This document shows positions 7,641-32,550 of a stretch of DNA of 64,000 nucleotides, piece after piece. This stretch comes from Escherichia phage A51.2. The notes below the pieces were generated by a model. That model was given only the letters and a program-made list of their open reading frames with translations. It was not told where the DNA came from and did not search any database. The DNA lies in sequence record ON286973. One strand, given 5' to 3'. The stretch's first letter is position 1; the number at the start of each line of letters is the position of its first letter. Made by a program: the position numbers and the translations under genes.

Positions 7641-9952
7641 TCACCAAGGTAATTAAAAGCAACGGATGTGAAGTGGCATTCGATCCAGAACGTTTAAATA
7701 AGGCAGCTATTTTCGGTGACGACGGTAACGGCAATTGGTCACATATTGCACTGGATGCATACAAACGACTGTATGATGGATGTACAACCAAAGAAGTTAA
7801 CCAAGCTATCATAGACTCCTGTGTTAGCCGTAAAGACGAAGCACATTCCCGTATGGCTGGTCGTGTTCTTATTGGTCAGATTTATAAAGAGGCTTTTGGA
7901 GGGTTTACAAAGATCCCTTCCTTACCATCATTTTACAACGACATGGTTGAGAAAGGGTATTGGGAGGATATGGGATATAGCTTTACCGAGCTAAACACTT
8001 TAGACGCTGTTATTGACCACAGTAAAGATCTCGGTTATGGCTATGCAGTCCTTAAACAGTTTCGCGACAAATACGGGATCAAGGATACTCTTAAAGACAC
8101 CTTGTTTGAATCTCCCCAGATGATGTTTATGGGGATAGCAATGGCTGTCATGAAGAATATGCCGAAAGAACGTCGTATCAACGATGTTGTAAAATTATAC
8201 ACTTATCTGTCCGACTTAAAGATCAATGCCCCGACACCGTACTTAAACGGGCTGCGCACAGGTAAGACAGGGTATGCATCTTGTTGTGTAATAAAAGCTG
8301 ACGATACAGCAAAATCTATTGGTGTGGCACGTGAAGTTGCGTACACAATGACGGTTAACCAAGCAGGTATCGGCTACTATTTATCATCAAGATCTGCAGG
8401 TGATGGTGTTCGCGGTAACACTATTAAACACATGGGTAAGATTCCATATTATCGAGGTATTGATGCTGGTGTTAAGGAGAACAGACAACAATCACGTGGC
8501 GGTTCTGCAACAGTATCATTCCTTGCACTGGACCCGCAGATTGATGAGCTAATCCGTTTGAGAAACCCTATGACTGTTGCTTCAAAAAGAATCAACACCA
8601 TGGACTACTCCATCGGTATTAATAGGTCGTTTATCAACCGTGTGGCTAAGAATTTAGATTGGATGCTTGTTTCTTATAAGCACGCTCCTCAACTGCATGA
8701 GGGTATCTTCACCATGTCTATGGAGGAGTTCGATGCAGAGGTTGAGCGTATTGCTAAAGATGACAGTATTCCTAAGACATGGATCCGGGCTAGAGATCTT
8801 GCTGTTGAGCTGATCACGCAGCGTACTGAGGTGGGAAGGCTGTACGTATACTGGACAGATGAGATGAATAGACATACACCTTTTAAAGATGTGATCTATT
8901 CAAGCAACCTGTGTGCAGAAATAGCCCTCCCGACAAAAGGCTATTCAGATATGCGTAATATCTTCAAGTACGATGTTGATGATGGTGAGGTTGCATTGTG
9001 CTTCCTGTCATCTCTTGTAGCTGGAAGGGTTACCCCAGAGGAGTATGAGGATGTTGCATACTACACGGTACTTATGATTGACAATGTTATGGAAATCATG
9101 ACATATCCGTATGAAAACATGGAGAGTACTGTTAAAAAACGCAGATCCATCGGGGTTGGCCTTACCAATGTTGCACATTTTATTGCCAGCCACAAGGTTA
9201 CTTACGGATCTCCTGAAAGTAAACAGCTTGTTCACGATCTTGCAGAACTTCACAGCTACAGCTTGCATAAGGCAAGTTTACGGTTGGCAAAAGAGCGTGG
9301 TGTCTGCGAGTGGATGTATAAAACAAAATATCCAGAAGGTTGGTTACCAATCGACACTTATAACAAAGAGGTCGATAGTGTGGTGAAAGATCCTTCTCTT
9401 AAACAGGATTGGGAAGGGTTACGTAAAGAAATCATTGAAAATGGTGGGCTACGTAATAGCGTTCTTGAAGCATATATGCCTAATGAAAGCTCTTCGCTGG
9501 CAACAAACACCACTAACGGGGTTTATCCTGTCCGTGAGCACATTATCTTTAAAAAGTCGCCACAAGGGCAGGTGCTGTTTATCGTTCCTGAATACGATGA
9601 GTTGAAAGAGTATTACACTTCGGCTTGGGACGTTGATACTAACGACATGATCGATATGTATGCTGTGATTCAAAAATTCACAGGTCAGGCAATCAGCGCG
9701 GATTTATACATAGACTACACCAAGTTGAAAGATGGTAAAATTTCAATGAAGGAGCAGCTAGGGTACCTTATCCGTGCCACTAAATTCGGGATGAAGACAT
9801 GGTATTATTTAAACTCTAGGGTTGGTGCTGGTGACTCCTTGGCAGAGGAACTTCATGCCAAGAAACAGGCTGAAGATGAAACCAGAAAGAACTATCCTTT
9901 GATTGCAGATAGTTCAGTTGAAGATCCGTATTGCGAAAGCTGTGCACTATAA
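7637..9952 (+). CDS. nrdA: ribonucleotide reductase class Ia large subunit
   Basis: N-terminal ATP-cone (VIKSNG..E.F), catalytic NLCAEIALP motif, 771 aa; TTG start after GGAGGA. Confidence 0.9.
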   Translation: MITKVIKSNGCEVAFDPERLNKAAIFGDDGNGNWSHIALDAYKRLYDGCTTKEVNQAIIDSCVSRKDEAHSRMAGRVLIGQIYKEAFGGFTKIPSLPSFYNDMVEKGYWEDMGYSFTELNTLDAVIDHSKDLGYGYAVLKQFRDKYGIKDTLKDTLFESPQMMFMGIAMAVMKNMPKERRINDVVKLYTYLSDLKINAPTPYLNGLRTGKTGYASCCVIKADDTAKSIGVAREVAYTMTVNQAGIGYYLSSRSAGDGVRGNTIKHMGKIPYYRGIDAGVKENRQQSRGGSATVSFLALDPQIDELIRLRNPMTVASKRINTMDYSIGINRSFINRVAKNLDWMLVSYKHAPQLHEGIFTMSMEEFDAEVERIAKDDSIPKTWIRARDLAVELITQRTEVGRLYVYWTDEMNRHTPFKDVIYSSNLCAEIALPTKGYSDMRNIFKYDVDDGEVALCFLSSLVAGRVTPEEYEDVAYYTVLMIDNVMEIMTYPYENMESTVKKRRSIGVGLTNVAHFIASHKVTYGSPESKQLVHDLAELHSYSLHKASLRLAKERGVCEWMYKTKYPEGWLPIDTYNKEVDSVVKDPSLKQDWEGLRKEIIENGGLRNSVLEAYMPNESSSLATNTTNGVYPVREHIIFKKSPQGQVLFIVPEYDELKEYYTSAWDVDTNDMIDMYAVIQKFTGQAISADLYIDYTKLKDGKISMKEQLGYLIRATKFGMKTWYYLNSRVGAGDSLAEELHAKKQAEDETRKNYPLIADSSVEDPYCESCAL

Positions 9953-9959
9953 TTTTAAA

Positions 9960-9978
9960 GGGGCTTCGGCCCCATTTT
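9960..9978 (+). terminator. hairpin GGGGC-TTCG-GCCCC plus T tract between nrdA and nrdB (terminator/attenuator)
   Basis: Perfect stem with TTCG loop followed by ATTTT, 8 nt after nrdA stop. Confidence 0.5.
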
Positions 9979-9990
9979 AGAGGTAGAATA

Positions 9991-11079
9991 ATGGCTGTAT
10001 TTAATGCTGAGAACACCGCTCATAAAACTGGTGACTATCCGCTGTTTCTGGGACAGCAAATGGGTATGTACGACTCTATCAACAAAAAATATCCACAACT
10101 GTTTGAACTATACAAAAAACAAAAAGAGCAAGATTGGGCAGAGGATGAAGTGGATTTGTCGCAATCTATTTCAGATTTTGTAACATGCTCAAAGTCAACT
10201 TATGACGTGATGGTGCAGACCTTGATGTGGCAATGGGAGGCTGATAGCGTTGCGGCAAGATCGATCATCTGCCTCTTTTCACCATTCATCACTAATAGTG
10301 AGCTTTTCACTCTATTGATGAAACAGTCAGAGATTGAAGTTCTTCACGCACTAACTTACTCAGAGATTGTTAGACAATGCCTCCCCAATGCCCGTGAGAT
10401 TATAGAAGAGATTCAGGAAAACCAAAACGTTCTGAGCAGATCCGGCGTTATTGTCAAATACATGCAAGAGCTTGAGGTTATTGGTGCAAAATACCGCCTG
10501 GATCCTTCTAGTGTTGAAGAAGATATTGTGCGGAAATGCATTCTTAGAGCGCTTTTTGCGCTTTTAGCTCTGGAAAGTATTGAGTTTATTGCAAGTTTTG
10601 CATGCACTTTCGCAGTAGCTGAACAGGGTATCTTTGTTCAGGTGGCGCAGCTTGTTCAAAAAATCATGCTTGACGAAATGCTACATTCGAAAGGTGATTT
10701 TGCCATCATTGATATCTTGCTTAATGATCCCGCATGGGAGAAAAGCTTCCTTGAGATAAAGGGGGAGTTAAAAGAGATTCTTGATGAAGTACGAACCAAA
10801 GAGTACGGTTGGAGTGACTATATTTTCAGCGAAGGAAGAGCGATTATAGGTCTTAACTCACCGTTGCTTAAAGAGTGGGTTGACTATAACTGCTCACCGA
10901 TTTATGATTACTACGACATCGACAAAGACTTTGTGCCGCCAACAAAGGACCCGCTACCGTTTATGCAGGTGTGGATGAAACCTTCATTACAACAGACGGC
11001 GAACCAAGAAATGTCGAACACTGACTACCGCGTCAACACAACTGTTAACGACGCTGAAGAAGAAATTTGGGAGTTTTAA
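9991..11079 (+). CDS. nrdB: ribonucleotide reductase class Ia small subunit
   Basis: Iron-ligand region EVLHALTYSEIV and FACTFA; ATG 9991 downstream of the hairpin (ORF-track start 9931 runs through it). Confidence 0.85.
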   Translation: MAVFNAENTAHKTGDYPLFLGQQMGMYDSINKKYPQLFELYKKQKEQDWAEDEVDLSQSISDFVTCSKSTYDVMVQTLMWQWEADSVAARSIICLFSPFITNSELFTLLMKQSEIEVLHALTYSEIVRQCLPNAREIIEEIQENQNVLSRSGVIVKYMQELEVIGAKYRLDPSSVEEDIVRKCILRALFALLALESIEFIASFACTFAVAEQGIFVQVAQLVQKIMLDEMLHSKGDFAIIDILLNDPAWEKSFLEIKGELKEILDEVRTKEYGWSDYIFSEGRAIIGLNSPLLKEWVDYNCSPIYDYYDIDKDFVPPTKDPLPFMQVWMKPSLQQTANQEMSNTDYRVNTTVNDAEEEIWEF

Positions 11080-11082
11080 TAT

Positions 11083-11361
11083 ATGAGCTGCGAAAAATCT
11101 TTTTTCATCATCATTTACGGTAAGGATAACTGCCCACATTGTGTCAGAGCAAAAGAATTTGCAATCAGCAAAGGTCTGCCTTTTGTATATAAGACACTTG
11201 GCGAGGGCTACACAAAAGAAGAGCTTATTGAGAAGTGCAGTCCAATTGTCCCCAGAACGTTGCCGCAGATCTTCTTAGAAAGCGATCTTGACAGTGTCCA
11301 TATAGGCGGTGCCGACGATTTCATCTCTTTTGTTAAGAATGGTTTTGGAGAGAAAAAGTGA
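11083..11361 (+). CDS. glutaredoxin/NrdH-like redoxin
   Basis: 92 aa with CPHC active-site motif, between nrdB and nrdD. Confidence 0.65.
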   Translation: MSCEKSFFIIIYGKDNCPHCVRAKEFAISKGLPFVYKTLGEGYTKEELIEKCSPIVPRTLPQIFLESDLDSVHIGGADDFISFVKNGFGEKK

Positions 11362-13496
11362 AAGTTGTAAAACGGGACGGTAGAGAAGAGTTCTATAACG
11401 GAATTAAGGTGATCAAGGCGGCAGAGTCCGCCTTACTTGAGTCTGGACATACTGAAGAAGAAGCTTACCGGATCGCCTGCGCGGTTAATGAAGTTGTTGC
11501 TAACAATCTACCAACCGACCAGTGCACGATCTCTGTAAAAAATATCCATATCCTTGTTGAAGATGCTCTTATGGATATGGGTTTAAAATGTGCAGCCAGA
11601 GAATACATCCAGTATAGACAGACAAGAGATAATAACAGAGAGGCAGGTGGAAAACTGCTTGCAGATATTAGTGGCTTCTTGGATCGAACTTGTGATGAAT
11701 TTACAAAAGAAAACGCAAATAAGCCTACTAATCATGTACACACTCATCGCGACCTGCTTGCAGGTATTCTTAGCAAACACCTTGCATCAACACAGATCCT
11801 GCCAGACCGTGTCTCCGAAGAGCACAATAAAGGATTCATCCATGTGCATGATCTTGACTACTTGATCAGTCCGTTAACAAACTGTTGTTTGGTAAATTAT
11901 CCAGATATGTTGGAAAACGGATTCAACATTGGTAACGCCCATGTCAGTAAGCCGAAGTCAATAGGGGTTGCAACAACAATCCTTAGCCAAATCTCTAGTG
12001 CGGTAGCTAGTGCTCAATATGGTGGTCAGACTATGAGCCATATTGATCATTATCTGGCACAGTATGCTGAAGCAACCTATGAGAAGAACCTTAAATTTTG
12101 CCAGGAACATTGGTTGCCGGATGCTGAAACTGTTGCAATGCAAATGACAGATAAAGACGTATTTGACAGCATGCAGACTTTGCTCTATCAAATCAACACG
12201 TTAACTTCTGTCAACGGGCAAACTCCATTCATCACATTGAGTTTAGGACTGGATACCTCGGTCTTTGGTAGAATGATTACCAAAAACTACCTGAAAGTCC
12301 ACAAAATGGGTCTTGGTGAAGAACGTATCACACCTGTGTTCCCTAAAGTGCTGTTCTTCCTGGAAGAGGGTGTCAACATGAACCCTGGGGATCCTAACTA
12401 TGATTTGAAACGATTAGCTCTGGAATGCTGTGCAGAACGTATCTATCCTGACTTCGTATCTGTACCACTAAATAGAAAAGTGACAGGCTCGACAGATGGC
12501 AAAGTAACTAGCATGGGTTGCAGGAGTTTTCTTAGCAAATACAATGACTTGGAAACAGGCGAGGAGAAATACCTTGGCAGATTTAACTTAGGCGTTGTTA
12601 GCCTTAACCTGCCAATGATTGCGGCAAAAGCTAAGACGGAAGGTGTTGATTTCTTTGCAGTTCTTGACGAATACTTGGATCTTGCATACGAGGCTCACCT
12701 TGTAAGGGTTAACCGTCTAAAAGGAACAAAGGCAGGGCAGAACCCCATCATGTGGTGTGAAGGCGCTCTTGCTCGCCTGGATCCTGAAGAAAGTATTGAT
12801 AAACTCTTCTATGACGGGTACGCTTCCATCAGCATTGGGTACATTGGTGTGTATGAAACCTGTCAGATTTTGGGCAGAGAAGGTGACAAGGCTTTAGCTC
12901 TTGGAATCCTTCAGCACATGAGAGATGCTTGTGAGCGATACAAGAAGGAAAGTAGACTAGCATTTAGCTTGTACGGCACTCCTTCTGAGAGTCTATGCTA
13001 TAAAGCTGCAACCTGTCTGGATCGTGAATATCCAGAAGTGTTAAAGCACGAGCATGAATATCTCACCAACAGTTTCCATCAGCCAGTATGGATCAATAGC
13101 TCTCCTTTTGATAAGTGGGAGTATGAGGAAGGTTTTGCTATGATCTCCTCCGGTGGCAACATCGGATACGTAGAGACACCTAACCTGAAAAACAACCTTG
13201 ATGCTTTAGAGGCTCTTGTTGACTTCGGGTATAAACACATTATGTATTTTGGTATTAACCAACCTGTGGATAAATGTCTCAAGTGTGGTTTCTCTGGTGA
13301 GTTCAGTGCAACAGCTAAAGGGTTCTGCTGCCCTGCGTGCGGATGCCACGATGAACAATATATCTCAGTGATCCGAAGAGTGTCTGGCTATCTCTCCAGC
13401 CCGAACAGTAGGCCGTATAACACAGGTAAACAAGCAGAGGTTATCGAACGTGTTAAACATGTTGGGAATGTAGACTGTTGTCCGTTGAGTAAATAA
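11358..13496 (+). CDS. nrdD: anaerobic ribonucleotide reductase (class III)
   Basis: N-terminal ATP-cone, 712 aa, C-terminal glycyl-radical motif RRVSGYL plus Cys cluster; GTG start. Confidence 0.9.
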   Translation: MKVVKRDGREEFYNGIKVIKAAESALLESGHTEEEAYRIACAVNEVVANNLPTDQCTISVKNIHILVEDALMDMGLKCAAREYIQYRQTRDNNREAGGKLLADISGFLDRTCDEFTKENANKPTNHVHTHRDLLAGILSKHLASTQILPDRVSEEHNKGFIHVHDLDYLISPLTNCCLVNYPDMLENGFNIGNAHVSKPKSIGVATTILSQISSAVASAQYGGQTMSHIDHYLAQYAEATYEKNLKFCQEHWLPDAETVAMQMTDKDVFDSMQTLLYQINTLTSVNGQTPFITLSLGLDTSVFGRMITKNYLKVHKMGLGEERITPVFPKVLFFLEEGVNMNPGDPNYDLKRLALECCAERIYPDFVSVPLNRKVTGSTDGKVTSMGCRSFLSKYNDLETGEEKYLGRFNLGVVSLNLPMIAAKAKTEGVDFFAVLDEYLDLAYEAHLVRVNRLKGTKAGQNPIMWCEGALARLDPEESIDKLFYDGYASISIGYIGVYETCQILGREGDKALALGILQHMRDACERYKKESRLAFSLYGTPSESLCYKAATCLDREYPEVLKHEHEYLTNSFHQPVWINSSPFDKWEYEEGFAMISSGGNIGYVETPNLKNNLDALEALVDFGYKHIMYFGINQPVDKCLKCGFSGEFSATAKGFCCPACGCHDEQYISVIRRVSGYLSSPNSRPYNTGKQAEVIERVKHVGNVDCCPLSK

Positions 13497-13506
13497 GGAA
13501 AGAGGT

Positions 13507-13537
13507 GGAGAGCAAGGATGCTCTCATTTTTTTTTTT
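13507..13537 (+). terminator. intrinsic terminator (GGAGAGCA-AGGA-TGCTCTC plus T11)
   Basis: Stem-loop followed by 11 T residues right after nrdD. Confidence 0.7.
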
Positions 13538-13544
13538 GTTTTTA

Positions 13545-13573
13545 TTGACTTCTATTCCTCTTTTCTATAGTAT
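13545..13573 (+). promoter_or_regulatory. sigma70-like promoter (TTGACT-17-TAGTAT)
   Basis: Hexamers with 17-bp spacer, 39 nt upstream of 13612 ATG. Confidence 0.5.
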
Positions 13574-13611
13574 GCAATATAAAGTGAATAGCGGAAGGGT
13601 CTGGTCTGGTA

Positions 13612-14544
13612 ATGAGAAGACTAACAACCGAAGAGTTTATAGAAAAAGCTCAGACTATACATGGTGACAAATATGATTACTTCAAAGTGGAGTATAAAAA
13701 CAACAAGACACCTGTGTGTATAATTTGTCCTGAGCACGGTGAGTTCTGGCAAACCCCTGTGGCACATGCTTTCAAGAATCATGGTTGTCCAAGGTGTGGT
13801 GGGTCAGCGAAAAAGAACACTGAAGAGTTCATAAAAGAGGCTATGGCTGTTCATGGGGACAAGTACGATTACTCATTAGTCAAATATGCGAACATGAGAA
13901 CGCCTGTAAAAATTGTTTGCCCTGAACACGGTGTGTTTGAACAATACCCTGAAAACCACTTATACCAAAGAAACGGCTGCCCAGAGTGCTATGACTTAAG
14001 ACGTGGGCAAAGTCAAGCGTTAACCCATAAGGAGCACGCTGCAATTATCCACAAAGCCAACCCAGACATAGAAATATTAGAGAAAATTGCCAATGATAAC
14101 ACAAAAGTGCAATGTAGGTGCAAAATTTGTGGGTATAAGTGGTCTGCTAAACCTAATAACCTAAAAAGTGGTCGTGGCTGCTGTAAATGCGCACAAAATG
14201 GATTCTTATCTCATGAGTACGGTAAACTCTACATTATGGTTGATGACTTAGAAGTGCCAACACTTATGAAAATCGGTGTATGCGTTAAAATGCACAGGAG
14301 GAAAAATGAGGTGCTTAACAGTGCTCGTAAATCTGGCGCAGGTGTCCACACTCTTCACGTAGTAAAAACATGGAGCGGATCAACTCAAAACATGGTAGAT
14401 TTAGAAAAATCTGTGCATAAGGCCTTGAGCAAGTATAAAATAAACTTTCCTGTAAAATTTGACGGTAGCACTGAGTTTTTCTACTACAGGCCTGAAGTGT
14501 TTGACACGGTAGAAGAGGTATACAAGAAGATTTGTGGTAAATGA
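13612..14544 (+). CDS. homing-endonuclease-like protein: three zinc-ribbon repeats plus C-terminal T5orf172/GIY-YIG-like domain
   Basis: Repeats HGDKYDY...CPEHG...GCP.C x3; C-terminal LYIM...KIG...TEFF pattern; sits between nrdD and nrdG with its own promoter. Confidence 0.5.
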   Translation: MRRLTTEEFIEKAQTIHGDKYDYFKVEYKNNKTPVCIICPEHGEFWQTPVAHAFKNHGCPRCGGSAKKNTEEFIKEAMAVHGDKYDYSLVKYANMRTPVKIVCPEHGVFEQYPENHLYQRNGCPECYDLRRGQSQALTHKEHAAIIHKANPDIEILEKIANDNTKVQCRCKICGYKWSAKPNNLKSGRGCCKCAQNGFLSHEYGKLYIMVDDLEVPTLMKIGVCVKMHRRKNEVLNSARKSGAGVHTLHVVKTWSGSTQNMVDLEKSVHKALSKYKINFPVKFDGSTEFFYYRPEVFDTVEEVYKKICGK

Positions 14545-14596
14545 TTGTAGAAAGATATGCATATCTTAAACATGCTATTAACTAAGGAGGTGCAGT

Positions 14597-14713
14597 ATGT
14601 CATCAGGTATTTATAAAATTTGCAAGTGTGGTTGTCGTTGCAATCTTCGTTGGTGCAAGGCACTGGACGATTTTATTTGGCATTGCCCTGAATGCGATGC
14701 GGAGTACTTATAA
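14597..14713 (+). CDS. small Cys-rich protein (38 aa, zinc-ribbon-like)
   Basis: Strong RBS AAGGAGGTG; MSSGIYKICKCGCRCNLRWCKALDDFIWHCPECDAEYL; below ORF-track cutoff. Confidence 0.35.
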   Translation: MSSGIYKICKCGCRCNLRWCKALDDFIWHCPECDAEYL

Positions 14714-14864
14714 GCATAAGGGGTCGAAATGCGGAAATCTATCAAGAAAATCAAGATAAAATTGTTAGCACTGAAGCGTAAGTATAAAAAGTTATACGGC
14801 TTCATCAAATGGACTTTTATAGGTTTATCTTGAATAGAAGCACATCACAGAAGAGAGGTTCCTT

Positions 14865-15101
14865 ATGATAGGTGTCTGTGTAAAAGCTAACAGATGGTTT
14901 ACATTCGGTAAGGATTACGAAATTATCTTTCATTCGGACAGAGCCACAACAGTAGAAAGCGATGATGGGTGCCACTGGTTCGTTAGTTACCATGGTGATG
15001 GGTATTATAGATCTACTGATTCCAGAGGGGAAGAAGCTGTTTTCTTGGATAGAGCTTATTGTGGGCCTGAATATCCTTACCTAAAAGAGGATAAGGAATG
15101 A
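14865..15101 (+). CDS. hypothetical protein
   Basis: 78-aa ORF, RBS AGAGAGG; stop overlaps nrdG start. Confidence 0.4.
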   Translation: MIGVCVKANRWFTFGKDYEIIFHSDRATTVESDDGCHWFVSYHGDGYYRSTDSRGEEAVFLDRAYCGPEYPYLKEDKE

Positions 15102-15571
15102 ATGTTGTTAATATTATAGAGTGTAGCATGGTTGACGGCCCAGGCATTAGGACAACGGTGTTCTGTTCTGGTTGCCCACATCACTGCGTCGGTTGCCAAA
15201 ACAAAAGTGTTTGGTCACCAGCTAAAGGGGAACCGTTAACAAATGACACTATTGAGAGTATACTTCACTCTATAGAGCCGAAACACATTACTGGCGTTAC
15301 ATTATGCGGTGGCGAACCTTTAGCGCCTTACAATATTGATGGTATGTACTCGATCATTCGCGCTATCCGTGAACACTTCGGCAACACAAAAACTATCTGG
15401 GTGTACACAGGGTATTTGTTTGAAGAAGTCCCCGATTACATTAAAGATAGTGTTGATTACATTATGGACGGTAAGTACGAAAAAGATAACCCCACCAAAA
15501 AACCCTTTAGAGGCAGTGATAACCAAAGAATGTTTAAAAAGGTAGCAGATGGTTGGGTTCAGGTTGACTAA
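15098..15571 (+). CDS. nrdG: anaerobic ribonucleotide reductase activating protein (radical SAM)
   Basis: CSGCPHHCVGC cluster (CxxxCxxC) near N-terminus, 157 aa. Confidence 0.85.
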   Translation: MNVVNIIECSMVDGPGIRTTVFCSGCPHHCVGCQNKSVWSPAKGEPLTNDTIESILHSIEPKHITGVTLCGGEPLAPYNIDGMYSIIRAIREHFGNTKTIWVYTGYLFEEVPDYIKDSVDYIMDGKYEKDNPTKKPFRGSDNQRMFKKVADGWVQVD

Positions 15572-30767: not shown

Positions 30768-32183
30768 CGCACAATTAGCTGCCCGGCCAAAGTGCTGGAA
30801 GCACCTATAACACATCTTTCAACTAAATTTCCCACCACCACAATCACTTACCTTCCACACATGACTGTTTGCTTGTTTAGTGAGCAGTCATGCCTTGACA
30901 TTCTTGCCTATCCTGATAAAATTAAGTTCTTCTCTTTTCTTTTACCGAGTAATTCGGGTTTTCTGTTCTCTTCGGTTTGAAGGGGTATAGAGATACACCT
31001 GAGTGAACAGGGTGAACAACCGAACCATTAGCTATGGCATTAGCATGGCGAAGCGGACGGGTGACGAAAGAGGGGCCGGAGGACACCAGTCACTGCCATA
31101 TGATATATGGGTGATAACCTGAAGAGTCTGAATAAGTGTTTAAGTACCAGTCAGAGGAAAAGGTGAATGGTAGCCGAAGGGGGGAGGGGGGTTTCTTGTA
31201 TCTTTAATTTGTATATTATGTATACACTTGTAAACCAATCTAATCTGAATCTGTTTACCACACAAAGCGGATAGAGACAAATATTGCCTATTAAACTTGA
31301 ATTATTTATAGAAAATACCACAACACCCCTTAAGTCTTTGATTTTACACACAAATCCTACAGATATTCAACCTCCATATTTAACATACTTGTAACATATT
31401 CCATACTCTACCTGCCTGATCAATTTCCCCAACTACATTCTCATATTTCCCCTGTCTGTACTACCCTGCCCCACCGGGAGTCCCGTCATATCTGGCTTTC
31501 CAGCAAATATCACACCCACAAATATCATGCCTGAAGAGGGTTTCATCCCATAATACCTGCCTTGCCTGAAGAGCGCTTCATACACCACGTAAATTTTTTA
31601 ATTGACCTCCCCTGCCCCGCCGGAGAGGTTGGCTTTTCCCACACAGACCTGGAGAGTCAGCCAGAAATATCTGAATAGGCCCAGTTCTACCACGATTTTG
31701 ACCTGACCTACAGGAGCGCTGCCAGGCGGACGAAATGGGAATACTTCTCATTCTTATAACAATTCTCAAATATCGAGGCAGTGAGGCAAATTAATAGGCC
31801 AGGCCGTTCACACAGTGGCACAACATTTGCAACCTATCTTGTGGGGTGAATGAGAATACCTATCATTGTGAGAACCATTATCATTACGGGCAATTTAACA
31901 TAATACCCATTATGCGCACCACTGGCGATCCATACAGGGATTGATAACACGAGTTACAGTTTACGCATATAACAATCATATTTCTTACTATTTGTGTGGG
32001 ATATAGTTAGCAGCCGATAGATTAGATATTGACCTGTGGACTTCCAACCGTCTAGACGTCTAAGCGCCCACACAACAAGGCTTATACATACATTACTGAA
32101 TGTAAACAGGGCCGCAAAAATGCTACCATACCAGTTTGTAAATTTTTCATGCAGCACTTGACAAAGAGGAGGAAAACTTGTCT

Positions 32184-32395: not shown

Positions 32396-32550
32396 ATGAC
32401 ATAATATAAAAGCAGGGCAACTATTAGCAGATCTATAGTTGCCTTGCTTGTTATGTCATGATTAACTAAATACAAGGCAACTATGATCTGATTAATAGTT
32501 TGCAGACAAACTATCACGGGGGTGATGGTTACTGCTTTTATATTATGTCG
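32396..32550. repeat. inverted-repeat-bounded cassette with GGCAACTAT iterons in alternating orientation
   Basis: ATGACATAATATAAAAGCAG (32396-32415) vs its reverse complement 32532-32550 (19/20); GGCAACTAT at 32416, 32476; ATAGTTGCC at 32435; ATAGTTTGC at 32495. Confidence 0.75.

Follow-up and report, generated by a model that had tools for sequence, protein, structure and literature searches.

A probable free-standing homing endonuclease gene of the T5orf172 class next to nrdD in the rV5-like Escherichia phage A51.2

Several phages contain homing endonuclease genes (HEGs) in which a T5orf172 nuclease domain is combined with repeated zinc fingers of the CapR, DUF723 and DUF4379 families. These genes are variably present and adjoin essential genes; ribonucleotide reductase genes were found in 33% of the 468 T5orf172 neighbourhoods surveyed, and homing by T5orf172 genes is, according to the same authors, without experimental verification (Barth, Dunham & Seed 2023, PMC10448857). 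Odn, a T5orf172 nuclease of phage ICP1, has been shown to cleave DNA in vitro, an activity that the E180A mutation abolishes (PMC8263062), and DNA binding has been demonstrated for the CapR zinc finger (PMC8096241). The authors of the BASEL collection annotated a gene in phage WalterGehring, a sister allele of the one described here, as a putative homing endonuclease, and described the larger phage genomes as heavily infested with homing endonucleases, with associated gene conversion.

The gene that we describe here lies between nrdD and nrdG of Escherichia phage A51.2 (ON286973). All positions refer to the window, that is, the whole stretch of 64,000 nucleotides that was analysed. Like the T5orf172 HEGs of ICP1 and other phages, this gene codes for N-terminal modules of the CapR, DUF723 and DUF4379 types followed by a C-terminal T5orf172 domain, and like them it is free-standing, variably present and located beside ribonucleotide reductase genes, in a family in which the number of modules varies.

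The nrd locus and the 310-aa protein

Along a 5.2-kb stretch around the cassette the window shares 99.9% identity with the Escherichia phages naswa and inoa; for about 120 further rV5-like Vequintavirus phages the figure is 94-98%. The phage is thus a Vequintavirus, an rV5-like coliphage, and not one of the T4-type phages to whose nrd loci an earlier note on this DNA, made from the letters alone, had likened it. The genes follow each other in the order nrdB (9931-11079), glutaredoxin (11083-11361), nrdD, coding for the anaerobic ribonucleotide reductase (11358-13496; Pfam NRDD, 3.7e-159), the 310-aa ORF, three small ORFs and nrdG (15098-15571; Pfam Fer4_12, 2e-38). In the window nrdD is a complete, single and uninterrupted ORF of 712 aa, and the 310-aa gene starts 116 nt past its stop codon, which led us to reject a group I intron-encoded endonuclease. 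Rfam families, including group I introns, and tRNA gave no match anywhere in the window.

The three small ORFs code for a Cys-rich protein of 38 aa (14597-14713), a basic one of 34 aa (14729-14833) and one of 78 aa (14865-15101), all on the + strand, and match PHROG 20137 and 3249. All three were also found in the insert-free phages rV5 (gp109-111), APECc02, ime and MaxTheCat; they are therefore resident genes that lie outside the element, and in this phage group nrdD and nrdG never lie side by side. The usual adjacency of these two genes, from which the earlier note had argued, fails here, since even the genomes with an empty site have small ORFs between them. Likewise, the two small basic or Cys-rich ORFs that it had described are present as it said, but they do not belong to the insert to which it had assigned them. 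The 38-aa ORF downstream of the cassette is intact.

The 310-aa ORF itself, the putative homing endonuclease gene (13612-14544, + strand), matched PHROG 681 'endonuclease' at 3.8e-65. Four Pfam families were found in the protein: DUF723 in two stretches (2.4e-13, 50.2 bits for a cut-off of 20.9), CapR at aa 157-194 (2.2e-10, 41.0 bits for a cut-off of 24.2), DUF4379 (7.5e-10, 39.3 bits for a cut-off of 24.5) and T5orf172 (PF10544) at aa 207-307 (6.5e-8, 33.4 bits for a cut-off of 20), the last one covering profile positions 4-100 of 101. The profile search thus bore out the T5orf172/GIY-YIG-like C-terminus that had been suspected from the letters. The related family MUG113 remained just under its threshold (20.3 versus 22.3), and the GIY-YIG family proper gave no Pfam match for this protein, T5orf172 being matched instead. 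No paralogue of the gene is present in the 64-kb window.

Three zinc modules, all encoded on the + strand, precede the nuclease domain. Modules 1 (aa 5-62, 13624-13797; C39, H42, C59 and C62) and 2 (aa 71-126, 13822-13989; C103, H106, C123 and C126) are of the DUF723 type, with the best Pfam DUF723 stretch of module 2 at aa 86-126, and module 3 (aa 139-194, 14026-14193; C170, C173, C190 and C193) is a treble-clef of the CapR/DUF4379 type. The zinc repeat HGDKYDY...CPEHG...GCPxC, which had been reported as occurring three times, therefore holds for two of the modules and not for the third, which reads NPDIEILEKI...CRCKICGYKW...GCCKC. In an alignment of 20-22 homologues the zinc cysteines C39, C59, C62, C103, C126, C190 and C193 were invariant and C123, C168, C170 and C173 nearly so. 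From the profile matches and the conserved Cys/His ligands the modules are predicted to bind DNA.

The T5orf172 domain (aa 203-310, 14218-14541, + strand) has its motif positions at Y207 (in LYI), K220-I221-G222, R230, E265, H269 and E288. Y207, K220, G222, R230, E265, H269 and E288 were invariant or nearly so among the same 20-22 homologues. The spacing of 8 between G222 and R230 is that found between G19 and R27 of I-TevI, and by spacing and published alignments (PMC8263062) R230 and E288 may be equated with R27 and E75 of I-TevI, or with E180 of Odn. The full-length AlphaFold model had a mean pLDDT of 84.7 and was confident for each domain but not for their overall arrangement (pTM 0.44). 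A fold search with this model gave only weak matches to Slx1, and the C-terminal domain was therefore modelled alone; it then adopted a GIY-YIG alpha/beta nuclease fold with the Tyr, Arg and Glu motif positions kept. When solved structures were searched by sequence with the family profile, only mitoribosomal proteins with DUF4379 zinc ribbons came up and no nuclease, which is uninformative for the catalytic domain.

Cassette boundaries and the 3' end of nrdD

In the comparison with insert-free rV5, positions 13460-14579 of the window (1120 nt) replace 67 nt of unrelated sequence. As each allele holds sequence of its own (1120 nt versus 67 nt, unrelated to each other), this is a replacement junction, and a simple deletion could be rejected as the origin of the empty sites. 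The right end of the inserted DNA (14545-14579, + strand) is followed by renewed homology with the empty-site genomes from 14580 on, just 5' of the Shine-Dalgarno sequence that serves the resident 38-aa ORF. On this flank no extended divergent or co-conversion tract was seen, only four mismatches in the 25 nt next to the junction, at 14592 and 14602-14604. At the left end a homologous hairpin also follows nrdD in the empty-site phages; it shares the AGGA loop but has another stem and lacks the T run, so that the truly non-homologous insert goes from ~13527, directly past the hairpin, to 14579. An extent of 13507-14833 had been given for the insert in the earlier note and has to be corrected: what differs from the insert-free relatives is 13460-14579, plus a recoded part of nrdD from ~13320, and the mobile tract would start inside nrdD at about 13320 and end at 14579.

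An intrinsic terminator follows nrdD (13508-13536, + strand). It consists of a hairpin (13508-13525) with a 7-bp stem and a 4-nt loop, with a folding energy of -15.2 kcal/mol (z = -3.4), followed by 11 T, a run whose length goes from 5 to 14 among the carriers. Behind it there is a candidate sigma-70-like promoter, TTGACT-17-TAGTAT (13545-13573, + strand), as a consensus match of 9 out of 12. The same type of promoter (sigma-70, TTGACA-17-TATAAT) is annotated in rV5, and the site is identical in naswa, I29, nomine and navn, all the carriers examined; promoter-like sites are no commoner in the region than expected by chance (7 found versus 4.4 expected from shuffles). Both the terminator between the two genes and the promoter-like site ahead of the 310-aa gene had been noticed before and are found here, the first confirmed by hairpin and T run, the second as a consensus match. 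No good Shine-Dalgarno sequence was seen upstream of the endonuclease ATG. The gene is intergenic, leaves its neighbours undisrupted and is preceded by a terminator and a promoter-like site, an arrangement by which HEGs are recognized.

The last ~59 codons of nrdD (13320-13496, + strand) are recoded in the carriers. Identity to insert-free phages is 96-100% along nrdB, nrdD and downstream, and drops to ~72% in the 13300-13459 bin, with an abrupt onset at 13320. Between 13320 and 13459 there are differences at 44-46 of the 140 positions (31-33%), compared with a mismatch of 1.6-3.5% in the remaining 1962 nt of the gene (Fisher p from 2e-27 to 3e-36). Most of the codon changes are synonymous (~29, against ~13 that are not). 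The recoded stretch encodes the zinc ribbon, the glycyl-radical motif RRVSGYL and a different C-terminus, five residues longer (...HVGNVDCCPLSK); at the protein level zinc ribbon and RRVSGYL are kept, with several substitutions.

The full recoded haplotype was confined to cassette carriers, at 98-100% identity. Sixteen further records were mosaic, being of the carrier type from 13320 to ~13385 and of the common type beyond, with the switch point inside the conserved RVSG codons. The half-tract mosaic is accompanied by an empty site in AlexBoehm and by a different endonuclease allele in SophiaRose. When the phage collection was searched at the DNA and protein levels, the haplotype came up only in the carriers and the half-mosaics, and no donor from outside was found for the recoded end. 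The flank differences are thus linked to the gene, as is looked for in HEGs with co-conversion tracts or self-protection, and the recoded end of nrdD is a candidate region for both the target site and self-protection.

Site occupancy and proposed homing

With a probe spanning the empty junction, the site was found empty and uninterrupted in 92 of 121 related phage records. The cassette was present in 18 of them (about one relative in seven), always at the same site and with 98.3-100% identity, and most of the remaining ~11 records had other T5orf172 alleles there. The empty-site haplotypes are diverse (89-100% identity). Both states were found within V. murica, where naswa is a carrier and ime has no cassette, and within V. 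APECc02, where nomine is a carrier and both APECc02 and MaxTheCat lack the cassette. In navn the cassette is ~98-100% identical to that of the window and the flanks 90-96%. We are therefore dealing with a presence/absence polymorphism at one fixed site in close relatives, another property by which HEGs are recognized.

This comparison with insert-free relatives had been proposed in the earlier note, and its reading of a homing-endonuclease-like gene between nrdD and nrdG is now supported by the domains, the site polymorphism and the carrier-linked recoding of nrdD. The opposite outcome that it had considered, with all relatives carrying the gene at this position and no sign of mobility, does not describe these phages, given the coexistence of both states in the same species and the recoded nrdD end found only in carriers. 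Considering the domain architecture, the modelled nuclease fold and motif conservation, together with the presence/absence at one site, the replacement junctions, the linkage to a recoded flank and the mosaic partial tracts, the cassette is probably a free-standing HEG of the T5orf172 class (GIY-YIG superfamily), lying downstream of the nrdD terminator hairpin and upstream of the resident 38-aa ORF.

Such an element could work as follows. In a cell infected by both a carrier and a cassette-free relative, the promoter of the cassette would drive synthesis of the endonuclease. With its three N-terminal zinc-finger modules the protein would bind a specific site in the 3' end of the cassette-free nrdD allele, close to this end or at the nrdD junction, and the C-terminal GIY-YIG-type domain would cleave the DNA. 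Repair of the break by recombination, with the cassette-bearing genome as template, would then transfer to the recipient the gene together with more or less of the adjoining recoded nrdD end. The carrier would escape cleavage of its own nrdD end through the dense, mostly synonymous differences in it. We infer the cleavage, the location of the target and the direction of transfer, and it is the pattern of polymorphism that would place the target in the nrdD end. Ordinary homologous recombination between co-infecting phages, with no nuclease involved, could also have spread the cassette and the mosaic tracts.

The variety of alleles at this site allows a more specific proposal, which we consider possible although rather speculative. 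In vequintaviruses the nrdD-nrdG junction might be contested by at least three competing T5orf172 alleles, each with its own zinc-finger array and its own nrdD-end haplotype, that would cut each other's nrdD ends in the part coding for the zinc ribbon and the glycyl-radical motif, and the cassette of the window would then home in E. coli K-12.

A gene that is missing from ~85% of the relatives, members of the same species included, is dispensable to the phage, and this makes it unlikely that we are looking at a domesticated T5orf172 protein, either a sequence-specific nuclease that, in the manner of Odn, would attack satellites or competing phages, or a regulator that would bind DNA in the nrd region, comparable to the satellite protein CapR or to the autorepression by I-TevI. 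Domesticated relatives are certainly known (Odn, PMC8263062; CapR, PMC8096241). The ORF is also intact and nearly invariant across carriers, and a DNA-binding protein encoded between the terminator and the nrdG-proximal genes could affect read-through. However, the recoded flank and the partial tracts fit the prediction of break repair and not that of regulation, several different alleles occupy the same site, and all the nuclease motif residues are kept.

The conservation of these residues bears also on whether the gene might be a formerly mobile HEG, now inactive, that is passively carried and spread by general recombination only. We regard this as equally improbable, with Y207, R230, E288 and all the zinc ligands intact and an ORF that is uninterrupted in five genomes, with 0-3 amino-acid changes (0-7 codon differences in naswa, I29, nomine and navn). 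What would fit an inactive gene is that no strong ribosome-binding site was seen, and that the match in PMBT16 covers only aa 15-310 and extends across two features annotated as 'hypothetical protein', which could reflect a disruption or a different start. Decay and loss of HEGs are known, and the empty site of AlexBoehm, where the nrdD tract is of the carrier type in its left half, could be a loss scar, but a cassette ancestral in vequintaviruses and repeatedly lost, with a pattern made by deletion and not by gain, is highly improbable, as the 67 nt of the empty sites (a different nrdD C-terminus and hairpin stem) are missing from the carriers so that deletion cannot turn one allele into the other, the empty haplotype is both the majority and diverse compared with a near-uniform cassette, and the carriers are dispersed among two or more species.

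Relation to other endonuclease genes

Taken as a mobile HEG, the preferred reading, the cassette is an ordinary selfish element of an already described phage type, a new and uncharacterised member whose presence is ordinary for a large lytic phage. Its recognition has value for annotation, since most of the 18 deposited genomes list the gene as a 'hypothetical protein', and for the comparative genomics of phages, as the recoded nrdD end and the adjoining mosaic tracts are recombination artefacts and should be excluded from phylogenies. In addition, the pairs of carrier and non-carrier from the same species (naswa or inoa versus ime), all of which grow on E. coli K-12, make this a convenient locus to test T5orf172 homing. 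If the competing alleles proposed above proved true, they would provide, for the T5orf172 class, the first proof of homing that is experimentally tractable, and would show in a natural setting how arrays of zinc modules specify a target.

The closest relatives are the allelic T5orf172 genes of other vequintaviruses: WalterGehring bas51_0186 (330 aa, the one annotated as 'putative homing endonuclease'), Mangalyan gp119 (386 aa, at the same site after nrdD) and SophiaRose gp117 (386 aa, annotated as 'GIY-YIG nuclease family protein'). They share with the window gene the site and the nuclease domain, with 52-54% amino-acid identity that is higher in the C-terminal domain, and differ from it in the zinc-module arrays, which have three or four modules and vary in number and type. 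Their nrdD ends are of the common type in WalterGehring and Mangalyan and half-mosaic in SophiaRose. From the ICP1 HEGs the gene is set apart by its phage lineage, an Escherichia Vequintavirus, and by a similarity of only ~32% to ICP1 tcgB over aa 10-136. Compared with the T5orf172 HEGs of ICP1 and other phages in general, the recoded flank and the half-length mosaic tracts are unusually clear at this locus.

More distant systems share single features. ICP1 Odn (gp88) also has a T5orf172 domain with the catalytic Glu, and its activity has been shown experimentally, but it carries a RepA_N DNA-binding domain and serves as a defence against a satellite, at whose origin it is directed, not as a homing element (PMC8263062). 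MobE of T4, an HNH enzyme encoded between nrdA and nrdB, is likewise a selfish endonuclease gene at a ribonucleotide reductase locus, and nomine, WalterGehring and Mangalyan have an HNH gene inside nrdD itself, at window position 12217/12218; the HNH family is unrelated to the one described here, and the nrdD of the window is uninterrupted. Finally, the Seg proteins and I-TevI of T4 have the GIY-YIG fold in common with the 310-aa protein, but in the T4 enzymes the nuclease is N-terminal and the DNA-binding domain C-terminal, whereas here the order is reversed, the nuclease belongs to the T5orf172 subfamily and DNA binding is predicted to be carried out by multiple zinc modules.

Small genes between nrdD and nrdG

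Downstream of the cassette that carries the putative homing endonuclease gene of the T5orf172 class, the resident 34-aa and 78-aa ORFs (14729-14833 and 14865-15101) have counterparts in phage rV5, namely gp110 and gp111, the latter wrongly labelled as 'minor capsid protein'. I29, navn, AlexBoehm and SophiaRose lack both ORFs, and there nrdG directly adjoins the 38-aa ORF. The pair adds a second polymorphism of the presence/absence type to the interval that holds the cassette.

The 38-aa ORF itself (14597-14713; MSSGIYKICKCGCRCNLRWCKALDDFIWHCPECDAEYL, with eight cysteines, PHROG 20137) is conserved just upstream of nrdG in all the vequintaviruses examined, even in those devoid of the 34-aa and 78-aa ORFs. 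Its product might be a small protein that binds zinc and acts as a partner in the anaerobic reductase system, and the 'ribonucleotide reductase' names that it bears in databases look like annotation carry-over.

On the nrdD side, the T run (13526-13536) that follows the terminator-like hairpin of this gene varies from 5 to 14 T across the cassette carriers (5 in navn, 9 in naswa, 11 in both the window and nomine, and 14 in I29). This variation in length could affect how often transcription stops there or continues into the endonuclease gene.

A second insertion site inside nrdD

The nrdD gene is split at exactly the same position, 12217/12218 in window numbering, in nomine, WalterGehring, Mangalyan and navn, by inserts of about 800-1300 nt that in the first three of these phages include an HNH endonuclease gene. 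In the annotations of AlexBoehm and WalterGehring, the CDS of nrdD is entered as joined (spliced). The gene of the window is continuous and has no insert at this point. When nomine is compared with the window, identity steps from 97.5% to 99.7% exactly at 12217/12218, a step that points to a recombination breakpoint located at a second endonuclease site.

An ORF-poor region and related database records

Between 30850 and 33240 there is a stretch of ~2.4 kb in which no ORF exceeds 94 aa, located where the genes switch from the plus to the minus strand; the counterpart in phage inoa is devoid of annotation. It contains short direct repeats similar to ACTGTTTACGC (at 31956, 32237, 32252 and 32739), an inverted repeat with two perfectly matching 18-nt arms (32398-32415 and 32532-32549) and a hairpin (32410-32449), and tRNA and Rfam searches gave no match in it. 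It could serve as an origin or have a regulatory role.

About 20 GenBank records (MG0656xx) are titled 'Campylobacter phage', with C. jejuni as the stated host. Their name or host assignment looks doubtful. They are rV5-like vequintaviruses with 96-98% identity to the coliphage window, and 11 carry the cassette.
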